NCBI GenBank assembly: GCA_017440465.1
Contig: JAFSHF010000031.1
Coordinates: 6,064-70,063, forward strand
DNA length: 64,000 bases
Direction: 5' to 3'
Source: Clostridia bacterium
GTDB lineage: Bacteria > Bacillota > Clostridia > Oscillospirales > QAKW01
A program made the position numbers and the translations under genes. Under the pieces are notes generated by a model, which saw only the letters and a list, made by a program, of their open reading frames with translations, was not told the DNA's origin and ran no database searches. This document shows positions 10,812 through 57,420 of the stretch, piece after piece. Every line of letters starts with the position of its first letter. Position 1 is the first letter of the stretch.

Positions 10812-13800
10812 ATGAAACGAATCATTTCTGCCGTTTTAATTTTGATAATGCTCATCCCCCCGATGGTCCTGCCCGCCGAGGCGGCGACCTTGGTGCAAGC
10901 CGATTCAGCGGTGCGTATTACCGCCGATAAGGCGGTGGCAGCGGTCGGAGAGACAGTGACCGTAACCGTAGCGTTTGAGAATATCCCTGCCTGCGGTGCG
11001 GTGGATTTTAATCTGGTCTATGATACGGAATATCTGCAGGCACCGGCGAAAAGTGATGTCTCGATGAATATTGGGGGGACGGTAAAAGATCGAAATCCCG
11101 CCTATAGTATCGACGAAAAGACGTCCGAAGAATATGCGGGGCGGCAAGCGGTGAAGGTGGTTGCCGCGGGTGATTCCAATTGCCTGAAGGGAAGCAGCGG
11201 AACGCTTTTCACAGTCAAATTCGTTGTGGCGAATGAAGCCCCGGCTCCGGGGATCCCTCTTGCGTTTTTCGGGACCTTTAGCGATCTCTACAGTAATCGG
11301 GATCTGCGTAATACCATCCAAGTGTTCAATACCCATATTGCCACCGCCGATCCGACCAAAGAGGTAACCGCGGTTGCTCTGAAGCAAGCGCCGACCAAGA
11401 CCGAATATGTGCAGGGGCAGGCGTTGAATTTGGAGGGCGGCCGCCTTTTGGTCAACTATGACGATAGTTCCTCTCAAGAGGTGTATCTATCCTTGGCGCA
11501 GATCACCCAATATGATTTTACCAAGCTTGGAACCCAGACCGTCAAGGCAGAGTATGCAGGCAAAGAGGTCTCTTTCGAGATCCAAACCGAAGCGTCCGTG
11601 CTCTCTTCCATCTCGGTCGGCCAGGTGCCGGCGACGGTCGAATATATCCAAGGAAAAACAGCTCAATTGGATCGTTCCGAAGGCGTCCTGCTGCTCCATT
11701 ATACCGGCGGCATTGTTAAGACCTTGGAGATGTCCGATGCGGAGGTCACCCTCTCCGGCTATGATAAGGATCAGTTGGGTGTTCAGAAGATCAAGGTGCA
11801 GTACGGCGGCTTTGAAACCGAATATAAGATTGCGGTAGTGAAAAAAGCCATCAGCGATATCGACGTCCGCACCCCGATGGTCTGCGATGCCTGCGGGAGC
11901 GAGTGGAGTGCTTTTGATTTAATTCAGGCGGCAGACGCAAGTGCCGATCCCTACTCGATGGACTTCAATGAGCGGCTGACTTATATCAAAAATACCGCCA
12001 ATAACGTCACCTGCCCTTCCGACACCTGCGCAGGCGCGACCTTTTCCACCAAAATGAAGATGGTCTATTTTGTCGGCGAAGACTTCGATGTGGGAAACGC
12101 CAAACTGTTTGTCACCTATTCCGGCGGTACCACCGAAGAGATCGATATGACCTTGGATATGGTGGAGTTCAAGAACACCTTTGCCACCACTCAAAACGTG
12201 GAGGTGGCGTATGGAGCGCAATGGATGTTGATCAAAAACGTCCAAACCAGAAAAAAAGAAGCCACCGCCATCACCGTCACCCGGAAGCCCAAGACCGAAT
12301 ATGTGAAAGGGCAGTCCTTCGACCGCACCGGCGGAATCATCCATGTGGAATATAATGACGGCTCGGAGGAAGACCTCCCGATGGAGCATGAGGATGTCCG
12401 AGTCCATTATAGTGGGATGGATGAGCTGGGCGAACATAGAGTCACCGTTTTTTATGAAAGCCAACAAGCCTACTTTTATATCAAAGTCATTGCGCGGGTG
12501 GTGAAATCCATCGCCGTTGATCCGGAAGCAACTTCGACCTATGTCCGAGGGCGGGAGCCGGACCCCGACACCAAATTGCTGGTAACCTATAACGACGATG
12601 AAACAGAGACCGCTTATCTTAGAAACGCAACCGTCGAAGGCTATAATTCCGAGCAGATCGGGCTGCAGGTGCTGACCATCACCTACGGCGGTGTGAATTG
12701 TAATTGGCCGGTCACGGTGGAAGAAAAAGTGGTGACCGCGCTGGAAGTGGTGGGTACTCTGCCTACCACCGTTTTGGAAGAAACAGAACTGAATTTAGAG
12801 GGTTGCACCCTCACCGCCACCTATAACGAAGGGAAGTTGGTGGAAGAAAATATCGCCATCACCCCCGATAGGATCAAGAACTTTGATAAAAGTCAGTGCG
12901 GTTTGCAGACCGTCACCATTGAGTTTGGAGAGGGGACCGTCACCTTTGAGATCACCGTCCTTGAAAAATCGCTGACTTCCATTGAGGTGGAGGGCGTCAA
13001 GGAGCAATATCTGCTGATGGATGCGTTGGACCGCTCGGTCGGCAAGATCAAGTTGATCTATAATAACGGTACCGTTGATTATATCGACTTCAGCGATGAA
13101 AACATTTCGGTGGAAGGCTTCCAAAGCGATGTCGCCGGAGAGCAATTGGTAACGGTGGAATATCAAGGGTTTACCGATACGTATCCGGTAACGGTCTACA
13201 TCGAGATCTTGAGCATCTCTGTTACCCCGCCCAAGAAAACCGCCTATATAGAAGGCGAACCGCTGGATCTGACCGAAGGGTTTCTTCATATCACCCAACC
13301 GAACGGAACGATCAATATACCCCTCTCCGAGGGGATGGTTTCGGGGTATGAAGCCGATCGTATCGGCGAGCAGACCCTCACCATCGAAGTGGGCGAGCAT
13401 ACCGCCGACTTCAAGGTTACAGTCAGAGAGAAGCAATTAACGGGCATTACCGTCAGCCCCGAAACCATCGATCATAACGAATGGGAAGAATTGGACTTCT
13501 CCCAAGTCGTCGTAACGGCGTGGTACGATAATAATACATCCAAGACGGTAACAGAAGAAGCAAGTAAAGCCGCGTACGATACTTATGTTATCTACACATA
13601 TGAGGGAAAAACCGCGACATTAAATGTAAATGTCATCAAACGAGCACCTATTTTCATCGAATGGGCAGAAGAACCTCAAAAGAGAACCTATTTTGCGGGC
13701 GAACCGTTGCTCAAAGACGGAACGATTCGGGTGCATTATAACGATCAGTCGAATGAGCAGCTCCCTTTGACCGATGAAAATGTATCGATCATCGGAGATA

Positions 13801-15140
13801 CCAATGTGGAAGGAGCGGAAACGGTCTATGTGAAATATAACGATTTAAGCCCCATTAGCTTTGAGATCACCGTCGTTCCGGTGGTGGTTGAGAAGATCGA
13901 GATTACTACCGAACCTGAGCGTAGCTATATTGAAGGGCAGCCTTTGAATGTGGCAGGCGGGATGATCCTCATCACCTATAATAATGAGGATACCGAGCCG
14001 CTGGCGATGGATGCCGCGGGGGTCACCCTTTCGGGCTATGATCCCAATAAGATCGGGGAGCAGACCGTCACCGTTACCTACGGCGGAAAAACCGCTACCT
14101 TTACCGTCAACGTTCGCGCCAGAAAGGCAGTAAGCATCCGTATATCGACTCGACCCAAGACGGAGTACTTAGAGGGCAAGGATACTGCGCTGAATTTAGC
14201 GGGCGGAAAACTGACCGTGTATTATGATAATAATACTTCGGCAACCATCAATCTTACTGACTCGCAGGTTACAGTAAGTGGTTTTAAAGCGACGCAGATC
14301 GGGGATCAAACGATCACAGTAAGCTACCCCGGCGTTTCATCTGCGACCTTTACTATTACGATGAATAAAAAAGCGGTGGAATCCATCGCCATCGCCGCGA
14401 TGCCGACCAAGATGATGTATCGGCAGGGCGTCGAAAAATTTGATCCCGCCGGCGGGTTGATTACGGTTTTTTATAATAACGATACCAAAGAGACCGTCCA
14501 TCTTTCCAAAGCAACCGTCAGCGGATTTTCCAATCTCTTTGCAGGGGATGTCACCGTCACCGCAGTCTATCAAGGCTCTGCGGTGGAGTTTAAGGTGCTG
14601 ATCCTTGCGGAAAATCCCTTTAAAGACGTCAAGGCGAACGAATATTATGAGACGCCGGTTCTTTGGGCGGTGACCAAGGAGATCACCAAAGGAACGGCAG
14701 AGGATACCTTCAGCCCCAACGATGAATGTACCCGCGGCCAGATCGTCACTTTCCTCTGGCGTGCCGCCGGGGAGCCCGCGACCGAAACCGCCAAAAATCC
14801 GTTTAAGGATGTCAAAAAAGGCGAATATCATTATAATGCCGTTCTTTGGGCGGTGGAAAACGGCATCACCAACGGGATGGATGCCACCCACTTTGCTCCC
14901 GATGCCTCTTGTACCCGCGGGCAGGTCGTCACCTTCCTTTGGCGGGCGGCAGGAGAGCCTGCGCCCGAAACCGCCAAAAATCCGTTTAAGGATATCAAAA
15001 AGAGCGAATATTATTATAACGCCGTTCTTTGGACGGTGGAAAACGGCATCACCAACGGAATGACCGACACGACCTTTGCGCCGAATTCAACCTGTACGCG
15101 CGGACATATAGTCACCTTCCTCTACCGCACCTATGACTAA
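10812..15140 (+). CDS. Giant surface protein: N-terminal cohesin-like domain, about 13 bacterial Ig-like repeats, three C-terminal SLH-like repeats
   Basis: Signal peptide MKRIISAVLIL; cohesin-like GETVTVTVAFENIPACGAVDFNLVYD; ~80-aa repeats (KTEYxxGxxLxLxGGxLxVxY..GxQxVTVxY); three near-identical NPFKDVK..WAVENGITNG..CTRGQVVTFLWRAAGEP units. Confidence 0.85.
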   Translation: MKRIISAVLILIMLIPPMVLPAEAATLVQADSAVRITADKAVAAVGETVTVTVAFENIPACGAVDFNLVYDTEYLQAPAKSDVSMNIGGTVKDRNPAYSIDEKTSEEYAGRQAVKVVAAGDSNCLKGSSGTLFTVKFVVANEAPAPGIPLAFFGTFSDLYSNRDLRNTIQVFNTHIATADPTKEVTAVALKQAPTKTEYVQGQALNLEGGRLLVNYDDSSSQEVYLSLAQITQYDFTKLGTQTVKAEYAGKEVSFEIQTEASVLSSISVGQVPATVEYIQGKTAQLDRSEGVLLLHYTGGIVKTLEMSDAEVTLSGYDKDQLGVQKIKVQYGGFETEYKIAVVKKAISDIDVRTPMVCDACGSEWSAFDLIQAADASADPYSMDFNERLTYIKNTANNVTCPSDTCAGATFSTKMKMVYFVGEDFDVGNAKLFVTYSGGTTEEIDMTLDMVEFKNTFATTQNVEVAYGAQWMLIKNVQTRKKEATAITVTRKPKTEYVKGQSFDRTGGIIHVEYNDGSEEDLPMEHEDVRVHYSGMDELGEHRVTVFYESQQAYFYIKVIARVVKSIAVDPEATSTYVRGREPDPDTKLLVTYNDDETETAYLRNATVEGYNSEQIGLQVLTITYGGVNCNWPVTVEEKVVTALEVVGTLPTTVLEETELNLEGCTLTATYNEGKLVEENIAITPDRIKNFDKSQCGLQTVTIEFGEGTVTFEITVLEKSLTSIEVEGVKEQYLLMDALDRSVGKIKLIYNNGTVDYIDFSDENISVEGFQSDVAGEQLVTVEYQGFTDTYPVTVYIEILSISVTPPKKTAYIEGEPLDLTEGFLHITQPNGTINIPLSEGMVSGYEADRIGEQTLTIEVGEHTADFKVTVREKQLTGITVSPETIDHNEWEELDFSQVVVTAWYDNNTSKTVTEEASKAAYDTYVIYTYEGKTATLNVNVIKRAPIFIEWAEEPQKRTYFAGEPLLKDGTIRVHYNDQSNEQLPLTDENVSIIGDTNVEGAETVYVKYNDLSPISFEITVVPVVVEKIEITTEPERSYIEGQPLNVAGGMILITYNNEDTEPLAMDAAGVTLSGYDPNKIGEQTVTVTYGGKTATFTVNVRARKAVSIRISTRPKTEYLEGKDTALNLAGGKLTVYYDNNTSATINLTDSQVTVSGFKATQIGDQTITVSYPGVSSATFTITMNKKAVESIAIAAMPTKMMYRQGVEKFDPAGGLITVFYNNDTKETVHLSKATVSGFSNLFAGDVTVTAVYQGSAVEFKVLILAENPFKDVKANEYYETPVLWAVTKEITKGTAEDTFSPNDECTRGQIVTFLWRAAGEPATETAKNPFKDVKKGEYHYNAVLWAVENGITNGMDATHFAPDASCTRGQVVTFLWRAAGEPAPETAKNPFKDIKKSEYYYNAVLWTVENGITNGMTDTTFAPNSTCTRGHIVTFLYRTYD

Positions 15141-15301
15141 ACCGTTGAAATGGGCGCATCTTCCGATTTTTTGCCCCTCGGCATATCATTATATAGCCGA
15201 GGGATCAAAGAAATCGAAACCTGCATCCCATTTGAACGGTTTCGACCGAGAGCAAAAATGAAATAAAAAATCGACCTTGAATTTCAAGGTCGATTCTTTT
15301 T
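15141..15301 (+). repeat. Module X copy 1: conserved leader, two hairpins and a terminator (candidate small RNA / 3'UTR element)
   Basis: Starts at the stop codon of the 10812 gene. Hairpin 1 is 15175-15203 (CCCTCGGC/GCCGAGGG, loop ATATCATTATATA). Hairpin 2 is 15214-15245. Terminator is 15271-15301. Confidence 0.6.
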
Positions 15302-16262
15302 GTAGGGAACAGGTTTTCCATCCCGCTATGATCCGTACCAAATGAATTGGTACGAAACAATCCAAACGATTTGGGTGTACCAAATGAATTGGTACGGAAG
15401 CATACAAATGATTTGTATATGCACAATTGAATTGTGGATCGAAACACAAATGATTTGGGGTACCAAATGATTTGTTAGGCACAGATATTTAATTAATTTG
15501 TAGGGGACGATTGTCTTCATCGTTCCGCTTTTGCCGTACCAAATGAATTGGTACGAAAGCATACAAATGATTTGTATGTGCACAATTGAATTGTGGATCG
15601 AAACACAAATGATTTGGGGTACCAAATGATTTGTTAGGCACAGATATTTAATTAATTTGTAGGGGAAGATTGTCTTCATCGTCCCGCTTTTGTCGTACCA
15701 AATGAATTGGTACGAAACAATCCAAACGATTTGGGTGTACCATATGAATTGGTACGAAAGCATACAAATGATTTGTATGTGCACAATTGAATTGTGCACG
15801 ATCCCTTTGCAACATCAAAAAATTCATCGCAAGCCGTTGTTTGCTCGATATTTTTTGTGTTGCGGCAGCTGCTAACCTGCTCCCTTCATCGTCCCGTTTG
15901 CAACATCAAAATATTCATCGCGCGGTGCGCTCGATATCTTTTGTGTTGCGGCACCTGCTAACCTGCTCCCTTCATCGTCCCGTTTGCAACATCAAAATAT
16001 TCATCGCGCGGTGCGCTCGATATCTTTTGTGTTGCGGCACCTGCTAACCTGCTCCCTTCATCTGCCACTGGCAGCGGTCGCAGTCGCAACCACAGGCAGC
16101 GGTCACAGTCGCAACCAAATGAATTGGCACGAAAAACACAAAAGATTTGTGTTTCATACCCCAAATGAATTGGGGGTACCAAATGATTTGGTAGGTGACC
16201 GCCCAAACGAATTGTGGACAAAAAAAAGAAGTGTGCATCGAAACACAAATGATTTGGGGGTT
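15302..16262. repeat. CAAWTGAWTTG palindrome mosaic, locus 1 (about 23 cores, in 159-198 bp higher-order units opened by GTAG hairpins)
   Basis: Examples: GTACCAAATGAATTGGTAC at 15335-53, 15377-95 and 15536-54; also CATACAAATGATTTGTATG, GCACAATTGAATTGTGC and CCCCAAATGAATTGGGG. GTAG hairpins at 15302, 15500 and 15659. Confidence 0.85.
15806..16062. repeat. Tandem repeat, 3 units of 91/86/~80 bp, embedded in locus 1
   Basis: Units start at 15806, 15897 and 15983. Units 2 and 3 are identical where both are present. Each unit can form a long hairpin GCAACATCAAAA...TTTTGTGTTGC. Confidence 0.85.
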
Positions 16263-16338
16263 AGTGACATTTTTCGCCATTGCTTTTTGGCAAAAGATTT
16301 GATATGATTATAGTATCAAGAGAAAGGAATTTTAGAGA

Positions 16339-17397
16339 ATGAAACGAATCATTTCTTGTTTACTGATTTTTGTAATGCTGATGGCCGCCATTCCCGCATC
16401 GGCGGCAGCGGATAAAACCGCGCGTTTGGTGCTGGATGCGCCGTATGGTGTGGTCGGTCAGGAGTTGGAAGTCCAAGTCCGTGTGGAAAACCTTGTCGAA
16501 TGTGCCGGGTTCACTATCGTTTTAGAATACGATCAGAACGTTTTGAAACCCTTAGATTTTAAAGAAGAGAAGCTCGGTGGATTGATGGCCTCCGAAGAAA
16601 AGGGAAAAGGAGTCTATGCATTAATATGGATAGGGTTTGATGATACCAAAAACGATATCGTAACGATTAAAGGCGATGTTGCTATCGGAACGTTTAAATT
16701 CAAAGTGCCTTCCATGCCTAAAAATGGAATGATTGCGATAGATATTAGAGAAGAAGATACAATGTTTGCCGATAATTCTCAAGAAACCGAAGAAATCGAT
16801 TATTCATTTGATCCTGTGTTCATTCCTATGTATAAAAACCATCCCTTTACCGATGTCACGGCTGATTGGTATAAGGAAGCGGTATTGTTTGCATACAATA
16901 ATAATTTGATGAACGGTATGGGCGAGAATAAGTTCAAGCCCGATGACGCCACCACCCGTGCGATGTTGACGACCATTCTTTACCGCTATGAGGGGGAACC
17001 CGATGTTTCGGCAAAAGCCCCCTTTACCGATCTGGAGCAGAATTGGTATAAAACCCCCATCAACTGGGCATACGAAAAAGGCGTTGTCAAGGGTATGACC
17101 AACACGACCTTCGCGCCGGAGGAAAAGGTTACCCGCGAGCAGATCGCGGTGATGATGTATCGTTATGCCGAGGGCAAGAAGCAGGATGTTTCTCAAAGAA
17201 AGAAGATCTCTTCTTTTTCCGATGCCAAAAAGGTTAGCTCTTGGGCAAAAGAAGCGATGGAGTGGGCGTATGCCGAGGGCTTAATCACCGGCAACTCCAT
17301 CAACGGCAAGGTACTGCTGGATCCTCAGGGCAACGCTACCCGCGCTCAGATCGCCACCATTCTGATGCGGTACATTAAGAACGCGGCCGAACAATAA
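16339..17397 (+). CDS. Cohesin-domain protein with three SLH repeats
   Basis: Signal peptide MKRIISCLLIF (first 18 nt identical to the 10812 gene); cohesin-like GQELEVQVRVENLVECAGFTIVLEYD; SLH repeats. Confidence 0.85.
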   Translation: MKRIISCLLIFVMLMAAIPASAAADKTARLVLDAPYGVVGQELEVQVRVENLVECAGFTIVLEYDQNVLKPLDFKEEKLGGLMASEEKGKGVYALIWIGFDDTKNDIVTIKGDVAIGTFKFKVPSMPKNGMIAIDIREEDTMFADNSQETEEIDYSFDPVFIPMYKNHPFTDVTADWYKEAVLFAYNNNLMNGMGENKFKPDDATTRAMLTTILYRYEGEPDVSAKAPFTDLEQNWYKTPINWAYEKGVVKGMTNTTFAPEEKVTREQIAVMMYRYAEGKKQDVSQRKKISSFSDAKKVSSWAKEAMEWAYAEGLITGNSINGKVLLDPQGNATRAQIATILMRYIKNAAEQ

Positions 17398-23579: not shown

Positions 23580-23762
23580 ATGGATAAAGCTGTTAAGAGT
23601 AATGCAAAAGCAGGCCTTGATAAGATGAAGTTCGAGGTTGCCCGCGAGATCGGTGTTGATCTGAAGCAGGGTTATAACGGCGACTTGACTTCTGCTCAGG
23701 CCGGTCATATCGGTGGCCAGATGACCAAGAAGTTGGTTGAGCGTGCCGAACAATCCCTGTAA
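23580..23762 (+). CDS. Small acid-soluble spore protein, alpha/beta type
   Basis: KFEVAREIGV and GHIGGQMTKKLV signature blocks; strong SD AAGGAGG. Confidence 0.85.
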   Translation: MDKAVKSNAKAGLDKMKFEVAREIGVDLKQGYNGDLTSAQAGHIGGQMTKKLVERAEQSL

Positions 23763-23908
23763 GTAAAAGACTTGGATATTTGCGCAGACCGAAAAAGCAA
23801 AAAATAAAGAAAAAATAAATGCTTTAATCTCTGCGTAACCAAAAAATAGGAATAAAAGCGGCTCAAATGAGCCGCTTTTAATTTAAAATTTTTTGCTTTT
23901 TCTATCGC

Positions 23909-23956
23909 CGATCTCGGCGTCTACCGTACCGATGTACGCCGACGCCACCGAGATCG
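23909..23956. repeat. L-hairpin copy 2 (same loop, stem CGATCTCGG/CCGAGATCG)
   Basis: Read directly. Confidence 0.75.
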
Positions 23957-24158
23957 AAGATTCTGCATCAAATCTTCAAGTCTTTTACAGTTTCTGCTCC
24001 TACATAAGTCTGTGCGAAAAGGCGGATATTGGCGCAGACCGCAAAAAACAAAAAAGAAATAATATAGGTCTTTTCAGTTTATGCGAATGCGAAGAATAAG
24101 GAATAAAAGCGGCTCATTTGAGCCGCTTTTAATTTAACTTTTTGTTTTTTGCTATTTC

Positions 24159-24382
24159 CGATCTCGGTGCGGGGAAGCGGGGGTAATTTTGCCTTGCCGC
24201 AAAAAGCGGTCGAAGATTTTTAAAACAGACGAATTTCGGTTGAGCAAGGCAAAAGCGCAGGCAATACCGTCGTATTGCCGAGCATTTTAACGCAGCACAG
24301 GCGGAATTGGTCGGTTTAAAAACAAGGATAAAGTTACCCCCGCTTCCCCTTGTACCGATGTACGCCGACGCCACCGAGATCG
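24159..24382. repeat. L-hairpin copy 3, interrupted in its loop by element E1
   Basis: Left stem at 24159-67 and right stem at 24374-82; the loop remnant GTACCGATGTACGCCGAC follows E1. Confidence 0.7.
24171..24349. mobile_element. Foldback element E1 (179 bp, 16-bp perfect terminal inverted repeat GGGGAAGCGGGGGTAA)
   Basis: Present in one of two otherwise homologous L-hairpin loops; its internal core is homologous to E2. Confidence 0.45.
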
Positions 24383-24485
24383 AAAATTCTACATCCAATC
24401 TTCGCCTTTTTGGTGGTTCCTGCTTCTACATAAGTCTGTGCGTAAAAATGCGCAGACCGCAAAAAACAAATTTAATTTCATAGTG

Positions 24486-24955
24486 CTATAAAACTCGAAT
24501 GATTTTTTTGTGCTGTTTTATAGCGTAATCAAGGGCGATTTTGGTGCCGCTTTTGCGGGTGGTTGGGGTGCGCTGTTCATTGTAATAGACGATGCAAAAA
24601 TGGCTATGATCGATCATTTCATAATTGCGCTCGACATAAGATGCTTTTCCTGCGTTCAGTATCTTTTCGGGATAATAGGTGTCTTCATAAGTTTCAAGTA
24701 AGTAGTTTTTATAGTGCTCGCTTATATAAGGATATTCCGCTCGCACATAAACGCGCTTTATGTGTGGGTGTTTTTCTTTTATCTCAGACACGATTTCAAG
24801 GCACAAATTATTAAACCGGCTCTTACTTCCGAAAAGGAACGTATCAACTTTTCGTCTACGATCAGTTTTTCGATGACTTCAAAAAGGCACACTTTTAGTT
24901 CTGCGGTTTCGTTTATCGTTCTATGTCCAAAAAAGCAACATATATTGTTCTTCAT
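24486..24955 (-). pseudogene. SLOG/DUF1273-like protein gene interrupted by a single frameshift
   Basis: ATG at 24955 reads MKNNICCFFGHRTINETAELKVCLFEVIEKLIVDEK. The homology (VDTFLFGSKSRFNNLCLEIV...) then continues in another frame that joins track ORF 24486..24806. The switch lies at an A4 run near 24848-24853. Confidence 0.6.
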
Positions 24956-25061
24956 AGCACACCTCTTAAAAATAATAGATATACCATATATCCATTTTAA
25001 ACATTATAACACATAAAACATCTAAAATGAATATACAATATATTTATTATGAGGTGTATTT

Positions 25062-25262
25062 ATGGCAATCAAGAGTGTTTCAATAAGAATTGAAGAAGAA
25101 ATGTTGAATAAAATCGCACACATTGCTGAGTACGAAGGCAGAAGTGTAAACAGCCAAGTTCTTGTTTTAATAAGAGAAAATATTAAGGCTTTTGAAGATG
25201 CGAATGGTGCTATTGACGGCAACATTTCTCCGGCTTCAAATGTCAAACCGACTCGTAAGTAA
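25062..25262 (+). CDS. Ribbon-helix-helix (Arc/CopG-like) DNA-binding protein
   Basis: N-terminal beta-strand/helix pattern KSVSIRIEEEMLNKIAHIAEYEGRSVNSQVLVLI; followed by an intrinsic terminator. Confidence 0.55.
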   Translation: MAIKSVSIRIEEEMLNKIAHIAEYEGRSVNSQVLVLIRENIKAFEDANGAIDGNISPASNVKPTRK

Positions 25263-25265
25263 AAA

Positions 25266-25298
25266 AACACTCTGCTGAGTTTCAGCAGAGTGTTTTTT
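25266..25298 (+). terminator. Intrinsic terminator after the RHH gene
   Basis: CACTCTGCTG/CAGCAGAGTG stem plus T6. Confidence 0.8.
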
Positions 25299-25323
25299 GA
25301 TTGCAGAATTGGAGGGTTTCTTT

Positions 25324-25537
25324 GTAGGGGACGGGTTTCCCGTCCCGCTATGACCCGCAACCAAATGAATTGGTAGGGGTAACAAATGAATTGGTGGGGG
25401 GGTAACAAATGATTTGGTAGGGGGACATACAAATGATTTGTAGGCTTGCACAAATGATTTGTGCAAAGAACGTAGCAAATGAATTGGTACAGTAATGCAC
25501 AAATGAATTGTGCAACAGACCCCAAATCATTTGGGGT
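25324..25537. repeat. CAAWTGAWTTG palindrome array, locus 2 (8 cores, opened by a GTAG hairpin)
   Basis: GTAGGGGACGGGTTTCCCGTCCC at 25324, then 8 cores, ending with the inverted CCCCAAATCATTTGGGG next to the TTGACA -35. Confidence 0.85.
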
Positions 25538-25539
25538 AA

Positions 25540-25568
25540 TTGACATTTTTTTAGAAAAAGGCTATACT
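25540..25568 (+). promoter_or_regulatory. Promoter TTGACA-17-TATACT at the right end of locus 2
   Basis: Consensus hexamers with counted spacing. A homologous junction GGGGTTAGTGACATTTTT occurs at 16256-16275, at the end of locus 1. Confidence 0.55.
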
Positions 25569-35461: not shown

Positions 35462-35604
35462 TGCGTGTTTTCTCCTTTTATAAAGTTGTTTTTTCTCCGT
35501 GATCGAAACACCTTTTTTTGCACACCCCACCGTTCGTTGCATCCTTCTGCCCGATGCACAAACGATGAAATGTGGCCATTCATCGTGACGAGCATATTGA
35601 TCTT

Positions 35605-35750
35605 CTGCGCGGAAAGTATTCCGGCTCGCAACTAAAACGCATCCGCTTCGCCTTCCCATTTTTTAAAAAACAGTGGCATAATGAAGCCTCGCTCGTTGCA
35701 CACGGCGGCGGGACCGCGGGGGCATCGCACCCCTCTTCCATCCCGCGCAG
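35605..35750 (-). promoter_or_regulatory. Cobalamin (B12) riboswitch aptamer
   Basis: Minus strand: P1 CTGCGCGG (35743-35750) pairs with CCGCGCAG (35605-12); GGAUGGAAGAGGGGUGCGAUGCCCCCGCGGUCCCGCCGCCGUGU core; B12 box GCCACUG (35671-77) followed by GGGAAGGC. Confidence 0.75.
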
Positions 35751-35769
35751 ATTGGAGATCTTGACTAAT

Positions 35770-39556: not shown

Positions 39557-39619
39557 GAGATTTATCTCTTTTGACCGTCATTATCATACCACGGCGTTTG
39601 TCCGATAAACAGGACACGA

Positions 39620-39652
39620 AATAAAAAATCCGCTTCGGTTGAAGCGGATTTT
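39620..39652 (-). terminator. Intrinsic terminator downstream of the SPFH gene
   Basis: AATCCGCTTC/GAAGCGGATT stem plus T-run on the minus strand. Confidence 0.8.
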
Positions 39653-55553: not shown

Positions 55554-55769
55554 CCGTTGAAATCGGCGCAGACCGACAGGAATAAGGAAAGAACCTGCCT
55601 TGGCAGGTTCTTTTTTATGTCTTTTCCGTTTTTTCACCTTCGGCATATCATTATATAGCCGAAGGATGAAAGAAACGAAAATCTGCATCCAATTTGAACG
55701 GTTTTAGGGAAGAGATTTAAAAAGAATGAAAAAGAACCGACCTTGAAAGGTCGGTTCTTCTATTTTTTT
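55554..55769 (+). repeat. Module X copy 2
   Basis: Starts at the stop codon of yloV with the same CCGTTGAAATSGGCGCA leader. Hairpin 1 is 55637-55665 (CCTTCGGC/GCCGAAGG, identical loop). Hairpin 2 is 55676-55707. Terminator is 55734-55769. Confidence 0.6.
55591..55616 (+). terminator. Intrinsic terminator of yloV
   Basis: GAACCTGCC/GGCAGGTTC stem plus T6. Confidence 0.8.
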
Positions 55770-55777
55770 AAGGGGCT

Positions 55778-55980
55778 GTACCAAATGAATTGGGAGGTAC
55801 CAAATGATTTGTTAGGAAGGCGAATAAATGAATTATGCATAGAGCGTACCAAAAGAATTGGTACGGAAACATACAAATGATTTGTATATACCCCAAATGA
55901 ATTGGGGGGGGTACCAAATGAATTGTATATACCCCAAATGAATTGGGGGGACCAAATGATTTGTTAGGAAGGTGCACAAA
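55778..55980. repeat. CAAWTGAWTTG palindrome array, locus 3 (9-10 cores)
   Basis: GTACCAAATGAATTGGGA, CATACAAATGATTTGTAT, ACCCCAAATGAATTGGGGGG (twice), GTACCAAAAGAATTGGTAC and others. Confidence 0.8.
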
Positions 55981-56168
55981 TTCGACCTCTACATGTTATT
56001 TATAATTCGTCTGCGAGGCAGACACCGAAATTATTCATTATTCATCAGCGTAAGCGACTTCATTATTCATTGAAAATTCTGTCGAATGAATGATGAATAT
56101 TGAATAATGAAAAATGAATAATACAAAACAAAAATCCCATCGACTTGCAGTCGACAGGATTTTCGTTT

Positions 56169-56256
56169 TGGCGGAGGAGAAGGGATTCGAACCCTTGTGC
56201 CTTTTGGGCAAACGGTTTTCAAGACCGCCTCGTTATGACCACTTCGATACTCCTCC
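56169..56256 (-). tRNA. tRNA-Ser (anticodon UGA) with encoded CCA
   Basis: Hand-folded: acceptor GGAGGAG/CTCCTCC, anticodon stem GCGGT/ACCGT with loop CTTGAAA, long variable arm TGCC/GGCA, T-arm AAGGG-TTCGAAT-CCCTT, 3' GCCA. Confidence 0.9.
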
Positions 56257-57247: not shown

Positions 57248-57256
57248 TAGAGAACA

Positions 57257-57358
57257 TCAGAGTAGATCATTATGGGTTAAGTGCTTGAAGGACGGGGAGT
57301 TGCCTTCGGGACGAAGAAAGGCGGATGCCTTTTGCCGTATGGTGATCGCATCCCGCTG
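57257..57358 (+). promoter_or_regulatory. THF (tetrahydrofolate) riboswitch
   Basis: AGAGUAGAUCAUU..GGGUUAAGUG..GACGAAG..GGUGAUCGCAUCCCGCUG resembles the THF-I consensus as I recall it; followed by an SD-sequestering hairpin ACCTCCT/AGGAGGT plus T-run; upstream of folT. Confidence 0.7.
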
Positions 57359-57420
57359 CCGAAAAAGATAGGACGATACCTCCTGATTTTCGAAGTGGAA
57401 TGAAGGAGGTATTTTTTATT

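Follow-up and report, generated by a model that had tools for sequence, protein, structure and literature searches.

What keeps a short palindrome intact in copy after copy across a spacer that encodes no recognizable protein? The question is raised by a 64,000-nucleotide stretch of the Clostridia bacterium assembly GCA_017440465.1 (contig JAFSHF010000031.1, positions 6,064 to 70,063; hereafter, the window), in which a 1.2-kb spacer, locus 1, separates the gene for a 1442-aa Big_3/SLH/cohesin surface protein (10812-15140) from that for a 352-aa cohesin/SLH protein (16339-17397). An initial annotation of this spacer described about 23 copies of the core CAAWTGAWTTG (W, A or T) in a gap of ~950 bp without a credible open reading frame (ORF). 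The count holds, with 18 exact and 5 one-mismatch copies (the latter at 15363, 15723, 15741, 16139 and 16204), and so does the apparent lack of coding capacity: the two mechanical ORFs in the gap, 15326-15799 on the minus strand and 15984-16307 on the plus strand, have no credible Pfam match, and some of the tandem periods of the locus (39, 41, 86 and 159 bp) are not divisible by three. We find that the core remains nearly constant while the DNA around it drifts, and we propose, with about even confidence, that the arrays are DNA-level, multi-site platforms for a predicted DNA-binding protein, with units that can extrude as hairpins.

Enrichment of the core over a shuffled expectation is readily apparent within the window: there are 33 exact matches against 0.40 expected (the maximum in any shuffle was 2), and 32 of these lie on the plus strand. 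All 33 are confined to three intergenic spacers (15339-16256, 25362-25533 and 55782-55963; loci 1 to 3), a scan that tolerated one mismatch gave just three matches outside these loci, and no prominent isolated core sites were seen elsewhere in the window. The array of locus 1 is not an assembly artefact because an independent assembly (L043; the L numbers are labels of compared loci outside the window) is identical to the window over all 1199 bp of the spacer. A search of Rfam with loci 1 to 3 at gathering thresholds produced no match, and in E-value mode, locus 1 returned sub-threshold chance matches to microRNA and small RNA (sRNA) models alone. Thus, neither of two mundane possibilities raised in the initial annotation, a misassembled region or a known noncoding RNA family, is borne out.

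Arrays of the same design in related Clostridia

We scanned one genome per species, 185,579 species altogether, for three cores in a row, and obtained 35 loci. Among these, 27 share the design of the window arrays and come from 9 metagenome-assembled genomes (MAGs) that bear the label Eubacteriales or Clostridia bacterium and have sample codes suggestive of sheep and yak; the motif is therefore not restricted to the three loci in which it was originally noticed. The related arrays contain 3-19 cores each, with up to 11 arrays per fragmented MAG. The species of the window is also represented by the ruminant gut assemblies GCA_045587805.1, GCA_017516595.1 and GCA_017473825.1 and by ENA XIEF21 scaffolds, which were recognized by exact-protein matches. 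The three-core pattern had 0 matches among viral contigs, BLAST against plasmid and phage collections gave no match, and a JGI-type metagenome collection yielded 43 loci, nearly all of which are unrelated simple tandem repeats that contain the 11-mer, with L082 as the only true relative. Given how scarce the matches are in the viral, plasmid, phage, metagenome and Rfam collections, the family is chromosomal and lineage-specific.

The remaining 8 loci of the species scan (L007, L012, L020, L021, L022, L026, L027 and L033) are simple tandem repeats or other elements. In an Anaerolineaceae MAG (L021, 6425-6540), a double-foot repetitive extragenic palindrome (REP), GTAGGGGCAATTCATGAATTGCCCCTAC, is followed by tandem partial copies; this is an unrelated GTAG-tagged palindrome that contains the 11-mer by chance. 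In L020 (4581-4892) and L066 (3463-3676), copies of a constant palindrome, (A/G)AGATATCT(C/T), and CAAWT-N-AWTTG-like cores of either orientation alternate at a period of 21 bp. We rejected both as family members: they have GATATC arms, the surrounding DNA lacks long ORFs, and they are probably eukaryotic satellite DNA mis-binned into a MAG.

The core resists change while the spacers drift

Across all arrays, we counted 277 exact, 68 one-mismatch and 26 two-mismatch cores. The single deviations concentrate at the apical positions 5-7 (T-G-A), which take 45 of the 68, the commonest changes being G6 to C (16 times), G6 to A (13) and T5 to C (7); the inner-stem positions changed 1-7 times each. 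The inner stem M-CAAA...TTTG-K (M, A or C; K, G or T) is almost invariant, including the flanking M...K pair. The original statement that the centre is the conserved part is accurate for the inner stem CAAA/TTTG and fails for the very centre.

The strongest evidence of constraint comes from a comparison among sequences of the same age, namely, the long regular tandem arrays of three species, L001 (41-bp period, 11 units), L010 (39 bp, 9 units) and L016 (41 bp, 16 units), 36 units altogether. Fixed core positions deviate from the consensus in 2/360 cells (0.6%), compared with 47/360 for the arms (five positions per side) and 127/648 (19.6%) for the spacers; the odds ratio is 0.023 for core versus spacer (p=6e-24) and 0.62 for arms versus spacer (p=0.009). 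Thus, in all three species, the core is ~30-fold less variable than equally old spacers, and tandem units with intact cores are separated by spacers that diverged by 13-26%. Furthermore, the 11-mer is kept in 9 species in which the flanking genes are 71-93% identical.

The bases immediately flanking the core are subject to a strict rule. Among the 276 unique copies from the window and the 27 related loci, on which all arm statistics are based unless a different number is given, the base on the left is A or C in 268 and that on the right is T or G in 271. Most of these form pairs (A:T in 118 copies, C:G in 104), and the 41 main unpaired combinations all conform to M...K as well (C..T in 21, A..G in 20). 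Retention of M...K even where the two bases cannot pair looks like independent reading of half-sites. The contention of the initial annotation that a simple protein operator would show the opposite pattern is, accordingly, too strong: the 13-bp repeat behaves like a sequence-specific site, and a constant inverted repeat inside drifting arms fits a predicted protein-binding site better than a purely structural hairpin.

Outer arms are complementary but only weakly constrained

The core units are ~19-23 bp long and consist of the 13-bp inverted repeat 5'-M CAAAT G AWTTG K-3' with 3-5 further bases on either side that are usually complementary. In locus 1, at least 3 contiguous complementary flanking bases are present in 12 of the 23 copies, with the paired types GTAC/GTAC, CATA/TATG, TGCA/TGCA, CCC/GGG and AACA/TGTT; the remaining copies have mismatched arms. 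Watson-Crick pairing at positions ±1 to ±5 amounts to 80, 73, 68, 53 and 37%, against 48, 38, 27, 25 and 25% in shuffled sequences. Perfectly complementary 4-nt arms of 16 distinct types occur in 105/292 copies, where 14 are expected, and in an alignment of 150 copies, the arm covariation score is 0.393 compared with 0.147 after shuffling, a value that none of 500 shuffles reached (slid controls gave at most 0.177). The arms are, indeed, variable and yet self-complementary, with some mismatched copies, as first described. Individual core units fold at -5.4 to -8 kcal/mol as single-stranded DNA, and the single-stranded folds of whole arrays are much more stable than those of shuffled sequences (z = -7.9 and -10.6).

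Among pairs of units with near-identical outer context, we found 94 single changes that make or break an arm pair versus one independent compensatory event; the arms are only weakly constrained and begin complementary, then drift. The mismatches that accumulate have no strand bias, with 78 of the G:T type and 66 of the A:C type. The interpretation of the units as products of selection on a hairpin or cruciform thus stands insofar as they are hairpin-capable palindromes with covarying outer arms, and does not stand insofar as the arms are loosely constrained and the core behaves more like a putative protein-binding site.

The two halves of the unit are not equivalent: the left half-site is CAAAT in 97% of the copies, and the right one is CAATT in 59%. 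The orientation of the cores is nearly uniform in the relatives (80-100% per array) as it is in the window, a consequence of tandem duplication. The cores are spaced by 17-25 bp or by 39-42 bp. From one core to the next, distances of 23-24 and of 17-18 bp often alternate and add up to ~41 bp; in other species, arrays whose units hold a single core repeat every 39-41 bp, and a decayed second core is present in a spacer of L016. These observations suggest an ancestral two-core unit of ~41 bp, or roughly four helical turns.

GTAG-footed hairpins in the same spacers

The core units share their spacers with hairpins of another type that consist of TTGTAGGGG, a stem, a loop, the complementary stem and CCCG. 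REPs are defined by a 5' GT[AG]G tetranucleotide at the foot of a stem-loop (PMC6006769), and this foot is present in the TTTGTAGGGGA...CCCGC hairpins at 15302, 15500, 15659 and 25324 of the window and in ~20 further distinct copies in the related loci. Their stems, which were identified by explicit stem enumeration, are GC-rich, 8-10 bp long, with at most one mismatch, and remain paired while the sequence differs between copies (GGGACGGG, GGGAGGGG, GGGCGGGG, GGGACGATG, GGGCGGATG and others), as expected of REPs, which are GC-rich imperfect palindromes of 20-40 nt. Analysis of the copies with MAFFT and RNAalifold detected no covariation, the variable loops having been misaligned. All copies are intergenic, and the element is multi-copy; the window contains single copies alone, and in the relatives there are also inverted doublets, 70-100 bp apart (L008 4344/4414, L023 7582/7651, L025 2243/2317 and L032 6286/6393). 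Single hairpins usually head an array, in the orientation of that array, and both hairpins and doublets lie within 150 nt of core arrays. In locus 1, each of the three higher-order units opens with such a hairpin followed by 5-7 small palindromes; the unit lengths of 198 and 159 bp that had been noted before agree with our map, and Tandem Repeats Finder (TRF) reports a period of 159 bp at 95% identity.

The CAAWTGAWTTG units themselves fall outside the REP definition. TARG occurs in just 23/292 of them, at their 3' side and nearly always in units of the ATTTG variant; moreover, the foot varies and the conserved part is the apical end of the stem, which is the reverse of REPs. The REP signature suspected in the initial annotation is therefore genuine for the TTTGTAGGGGA...CCCGC hairpins, with their foot, differing GC-rich stems and inverted doublets in relatives, and does not extend to the core units. 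In a tblastn search of ~0.45 Mb (the window and loci L001-L053) with sequences of IS608 TnpA, IS200 TnpA and E. coli RayT, no Y1 transposase was found; whole MAGs were not scanned, and this absence is weak evidence because REP-associated tyrosine transposases (RAYTs) are encoded by single-copy genes, which REPs usually flank. RAYTs of the various subclasses come mainly from Proteobacteria, Cyanobacteria or Bacteroidetes (PMC6006769), and Group 1 has also been reported in Clostridia (PMC5581495).

Turnover of the arrays

Arrays occupy the same spacers in species with 77-90% identical flanking genes (locus 1 and L028, locus 2 and L018, locus 3 and L006), and their content at these syntenic positions is no longer alignable between species except for the ends. 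Contigs of one species also differ by whole higher-order units: L042 departs from the window solely in lacking one unit of 159 bp and one of 86 bp, which could be real or an assembly collapse. In a sister species, a 305-bp composite block (L014, 3215-3515) is located between the recA promoter region and the neighbouring terminator and combines an inverted core with the 25-bp and 86-bp modules, four cores, a REP and a degenerate core. Neither the window (39615-39624) nor six contigs of its species carry this block, and no target-site duplication is evident at it. The observed indels involve a whole higher-order unit or a composite block rather than one hairpin, and numerous contigs break off within an array.

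At three independent places, a cassette that consists of a YpsA/SLOG-like gene and a divergently transcribed small repressor gene lies beside or inside an array (Table 1). The cassette is strain-variable; its YpsA/SLOG-like protein shows weak matches to Pfam PF06908, and the repressor is an Arc-like ribbon-helix-helix protein in the window and an XRE helix-turn-helix protein elsewhere. The stretch 24486-25262, which holds the cassette of the window, is missing from the syntenic locus L018. The presence of cassettes at three array sites, together with the turnover of units and blocks, indicates that the arrays mark plastic, recombination-prone spacers.

Position and orientation relative to genes

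All three arrays in the window start after intrinsic terminators, and no promoter-like site was found inside or just upstream of them on either strand; the sole promoters near loci 1 and 2 are those of the downstream genes. By crude ORF calls, the G-centred strand is antisense to both co-directional neighbours in 10 arrays and sense in 5, and 5 arrays lie between convergent and 1 between divergent genes. Checked by eye, locus 1 is sense and L001 is antisense, the latter with an opposite-strand ribosome-binding site and start codon on one side and an opposite-strand coding C-terminus on the other. Arrays of opposite orientation are found 5-6 kb apart on single contigs (L013 and L023), so that array orientation follows neither transcription nor replication. 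The GC skew, taken as a guide to orientation relative to replication, is positive in 18 of 28 loci.

Candidate explanations

Loci 1 to 3 are a mosaic of several extragenic hairpin repeat families that resembles the bacterial interspersed mosaic elements (BIMEs). The mosaic fills a predicted untranscribed spacer, from the terminator of one gene to the promoter or terminator of the next, and its two main families are the GTAG-footed, GC-rich REP hairpins and the new units built on the 13-bp repeat. Under the explanation that we favour, a protein-binding platform, a candidate sequence-specific protein would read the inner stem or the half-sites MCAAWT, and the outer arms would lengthen the palindrome so that the unit could extrude as a hairpin or cruciform. 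We lean slightly toward a binder that would read the hairpin-capable form rather than the duplex. By analogy with BIMEs, the role of such a platform could be insulation, the handling of supercoiling or nucleoid organization. A broader proposition, which we hold to be less likely than not, is that ~1000 copies per genome (an extrapolation from 3 arrays and ~40 sites in 64 kb) are selected as the binding field of an uncharacterised hairpin/cruciform or duplex binder, which would amount to a new nucleoid-organizing or insulating system of Clostridia, comparable to BIMEs with IHF and gyrase although made of unrelated components, with the arrays also acting as recombination-prone landing zones for the small SLOG and repressor cassettes.

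Several observations weigh against a binding platform. All-against-all comparison of the flanking ORFs revealed no recurrent partner gene, only large SLH/cohesin surface proteins and syntenic genes, and tblastn with PerR and Fur detected no Fur-family gene in the compared DNA, nor was a Y1 gene found there. The left-right asymmetry of the half-sites and the complementarity of the variable arms are unexplained by a simple symmetric dimer on duplex DNA. Array discovery required three exact cores, which introduces some ascertainment bias in the conservation test, although most units were not so ascertained. Finally, since the arms decay by single changes, their pairing may reflect the birth of the units rather than selection, and the near absence of compensatory change among recently diverged units weakens the case for ongoing selection for arm pairing.

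Among the alternatives, we consider it unlikely that the arrays are selfish, that is, non-autonomous REP-like hairpins or miniature inverted-repeat transposable elements (MITEs) that spread by self-targeted insertion and slippage without gain for the host, mobilized in single-stranded form by a RAYT/IS200-type Y1 (HUH) transposase whose gene lies elsewhere. Such mobility would account for the REPs with differing stems and inverted doublets near the arrays, for the 305-bp mosaic upstream of recA in L014 that is missing from the window and from six contigs of its species, for the turnover of content at syntenic spacers and for arms that apparently are born perfect and decay later, and Group 1 RAYTs have been reported in Clostridia (PMC5581495). 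However, the core units have no 5' GTAG foot and are conserved at the end of the stem opposite to that of REPs, gain and loss of mobile copies would leave the intact cores amid diverged spacers unexplained, single hairpins do not come and go in the indels that we observed, and, less tellingly, the Y1 gene is missing from the searched 0.45 Mb. A neutral origin, whereby slippage and unequal crossing-over amplify founder palindromes, quasi-palindrome template switching keeps the arms complementary and nothing recognizes the sequence, is consistent with the 95% identity of the higher-order units, with the differences between L042 and the window, which involve whole units alone, and with the limited set of arm types common to the species. 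We deem it highly improbable, given that it is already disfavoured by the excess of variation in spacers over cores of the same age in three species and by the retention of the 11-mer in 9 species, and that it leaves the strict M...K rule unexplained.

A structured RNA is improbable as well. Produced by read-through into the 3' untranslated region (UTR) or as a separate sRNA, such a molecule would titrate an RNA-binding protein with its AUGAA/UGA loops, in the manner of a CsrB-like sponge, or protect mRNA 3' ends. The many hairpins of similar apex and the strong single-strand folding are in line with this possibility, and E. coli REPs can stabilise upstream mRNA (PMC6006769). The arrays share repeated short hairpins of similar apex with the sponge RNAs CsrB and RsmZ. 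Those RNAs, however, are transcribed from a fixed strand between a promoter and a terminator of their own and carry a conserved motif in their loops; the arrays possess none of the three features, the loop being the least conserved part of the core. Because the arrays follow strong intrinsic terminators without a promoter-like site on either strand, occur in either orientation relative to genes and show symmetric G:T and A:C mismatches instead of a strand-specific excess compatible with G:U pairing, the sponge suggested in the initial annotation, or any other structured RNA, appears unlikely, and Rfam offers no match. Other known elements were rejected, too: CRISPR, type III toxin-antitoxin RNA, attC, iterons, Ter sites and DNA uptake sequences do not fit the anatomy. 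Plasmid iterons and parC/parS arrays keep a regular phase beside rep or par genes of a replicon or mobile element, whereas here the spacing is variable, a 64-kb piece of chromosome contains several arrays, no neighbour gene recurs, and there is no plasmid, phage or viral match.

Comparison with known systems

In E. coli, BIMEs and REPs are platforms for DNA-binding proteins, namely, IHF, gyrase and Pol I (PMC2817692, PMC6006769). Like BIMEs, the Clostridia mosaic consists of extragenic clusters of short palindromes and other motifs at gene 3' ends, is variable in copy number and includes canonical GTAG-footed hairpins; its REPs, core units, long-hairpin, 86-bp and 25-bp modules come in varying order and orientation. 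In BIMEs, the palindromic units are evenly spaced and alternate in orientation (PMC2817692), and conservation lies in the foot and stem, whereas the Clostridia core unit is AT-rich, lacks the GTAG foot, keeps one orientation per array and has a variable foot, its conserved part being the apical end of the stem. The host is also different, belonging to a Gram-positive-type Clostridia lineage, and protein binding is, in this case, predicted from sequence. Among REP-based systems, the REPIN-RAYT elements of Pseudomonas and Enterobacteria and SMAG of Stenotrophomonas resemble the GTAG hairpins in the GT[AG]G foot, the differing GC-rich stems and the inverted doublets; arrays of a second, foot-less palindrome outside the REP definition have not been described for those systems.

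The core units also resemble the operators of winged-helix dimers, such as the 7-1-7 boxes of the Fur family, which are AT-rich inverted repeats with a single central base, and the M...K rule is what two independently read half-sites might leave. The OhrR operator, TACAATT-A-AATTGTA, is likewise recognized by a winged-helix dimer. Operators of this kind are single, overlap promoters and have flanks without covariation, unlike the arrays, with their 8-23 copies in predicted untranscribed spacers. The operator co-crystallized with MgFur, the winged-helix Fur dimer of M. gryphiswaldense, TTAATTGCAAATCATTTGCAATTGC, contains the core GCAAATCATTTGC (PMC4506495); in this site, however, G precedes CAAAT, which is the case in just 4/276 cores, and the match can serve as a lead, not a test. 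Integron attC sites are also hairpin-forming, partly defined by structure and located beside small variable gene cassettes. The arrays show the inverse pattern: in attC, the outer ends R''/R' are conserved and the middle is variable, and there is one site per cassette and an integrase gene, whereas no integrase was seen in the flanks of the arrays.

GTAG-footed REPs and REPIN-like doublets are thus present in an uncultured rumen Clostridia lineage, and such systems are known almost entirely from Proteobacteria, Cyanobacteria and Bacteroidetes. The core family, a site that stays intact copy by copy amid drifting DNA, carries the signature of a predicted trans-acting binder with very many chromosomal sites. 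If confirmed, this binder would provide a tractable handle, the site being defined, on nucleoid organization or insulation between genes in Gram-positive anaerobes, would explain why assemblies of these genomes break at such spacers and would make the arrays markers of hotspots of accessory-cassette exchange. Even if merely selfish DNA, the arrays would represent a new repeat family that is useful for strain typing and for assessing assembly quality.

Feature map and other elements of the window

Table 1. Coordinates of the arrays and associated features (window positions unless an L number is given).
Feature	Position	Strand	Details
Long imperfect hairpin module, CCGTTGAAAT...ATTTGAACGG	15141..15240	+	immediately 3' of the stop codon of the SLH/cohesin gene; separate mosaic repeat family
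Intrinsic terminator before the locus 1 array	15269..15295	+	12-pair stem, then CTTTTTGTAG
GTAG-footed REP-like hairpin, copy 1, GTAGGGAACAGGTTTTCCATCCCGC	15302..15326	+	
7-core sub-array	15335..15474	+	exact cores at 15339, 15381, 15405, 15424, 15447, 15464; variant at 15363
REP-like hairpin, copy 2	15500..15528	+	8-bp stem, 7-nt loop, 1 mismatch
5-core sub-array	15536..15633	+	cores at 15540, 15564, 15583, 15606, 15623; within the 159-bp higher-order repeat, a unit that L042 lacks
REP-like hairpin, copy 3	15659..15687	+	
5-core sub-array	15695..15799	+	cores at 15699, 15723, 15741, 15765, 15784
86-bp unit, three copies	15802..16062	+	each with a long hairpin GCAACATCAAAA...TTTTGTGTTGC; mosaic module
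25-bp unit, two copies, CCACAGGCAGCGGTCACAGTCGCAA	16065..16117	+	accompanies the 86-bp module
Distal 6-core sub-array	16112..16260	+	cores at 16116, 16139, 16162, 16180, 16204, 16246
Sigma-70-like promoter of the downstream cohesin/SLH gene	16287..16314	+	TTGGCA-16-TATAGT, 10/12 matches; 30 nt past the last core
Two-gene accessory cassette beside locus 2	24486..25262		YpsA/SLOG-like gene on - (24486-24955, apparently frameshifted); Arc-like ribbon-helix-helix gene on + (25062-25262)
SLOG cassettes at other arrays	L047 2778-3510, L051, L052; L002 6667-7359		in L047, L051 and L052, in the middle of locus 3
Locus 2 terminator	~25266-25299		upstream of the REP-like hairpin; by inspection
Locus 2 REP-like hairpin, GTAGGGGACGGGTTTCCCGTCCCGC	25324..25348	+	-9.6 kcal/mol as DNA
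Locus 2 array, 8 cores	25358..25537	+	last unit C-centred; DNA fold z = -7.9
Promoter of the downstream small membrane-protein gene	25540..25568	+	TTGACA-17-TATACT, 11/12 matches; 6 nt past the last core
Terminators ahead of locus 3	55585-55616 and 55732-55759	+	
Locus 3 array, 7 exact cores and a variant (55850)	55778..55968	+	without REP

The long hairpin module that precedes the terminator of locus 1 is ~100-150 bp in length and is found 3' of stop codons, usually upstream of a terminator and an array; it also occurs at 55554-55700 of the window and in L005, L006, L008 and L028, and the segment 55552-55715 aligns to L023 and L031. Its apical stem shows compensatory differences among copies (CCTCGGC/GCCGAGG versus CCTTCGGC/GCCGAAGG), and the module could be a MITE or a 3' UTR element. 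The 86-bp and 25-bp modules always come together (window 15802-16117, L006, L014, L028 and L047). In L006, L014, L028 and L047, the 86-bp module is reversed relative to the cores, and from its occurrence in either orientation, the pair appears to be a separate invertible or mobile module. Upstream of locus 1, the 3' end of the surface-protein gene contains a 183-bp tandem repeat (14727-15123; 2.2 copies, 82-88% identity) that corresponds to three SLH domains.

Near locus 2, between the gene for a small acid-soluble spore protein (23580-23762) and the SLOG cassette, an ~80-bp module, ccgatgtacgccgacgccaccgagatcgaagattc..., is repeated at 23900-24010 and 24340-24430, with three copies in L018 (5800-6300), and every copy lies beside a terminator-like hairpin. 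The AT-rich segment 55990-56125, which separates the locus 3 array from the terminator of a minus-strand tRNA gene (56172-56256), contains ATTATTCAT/ATGAATAAT inverted repeats and a 7-bp AATGAAT tandem (TRF, 56085-56122). The core CAAATGAATTG is identical to E. coli 16S rRNA at ~911-921, the 907R/926R primer site, where we take the general bacterial consensus to be CAAAGGAATTG; we judge this identity to be probably a coincidence. Two riboswitches in the window score above the Rfam gathering threshold, one for tetrahydrofolate (57256-57360, plus strand, 76 bits) and one for cobalamin (35594-35762, minus strand, 72 bits).

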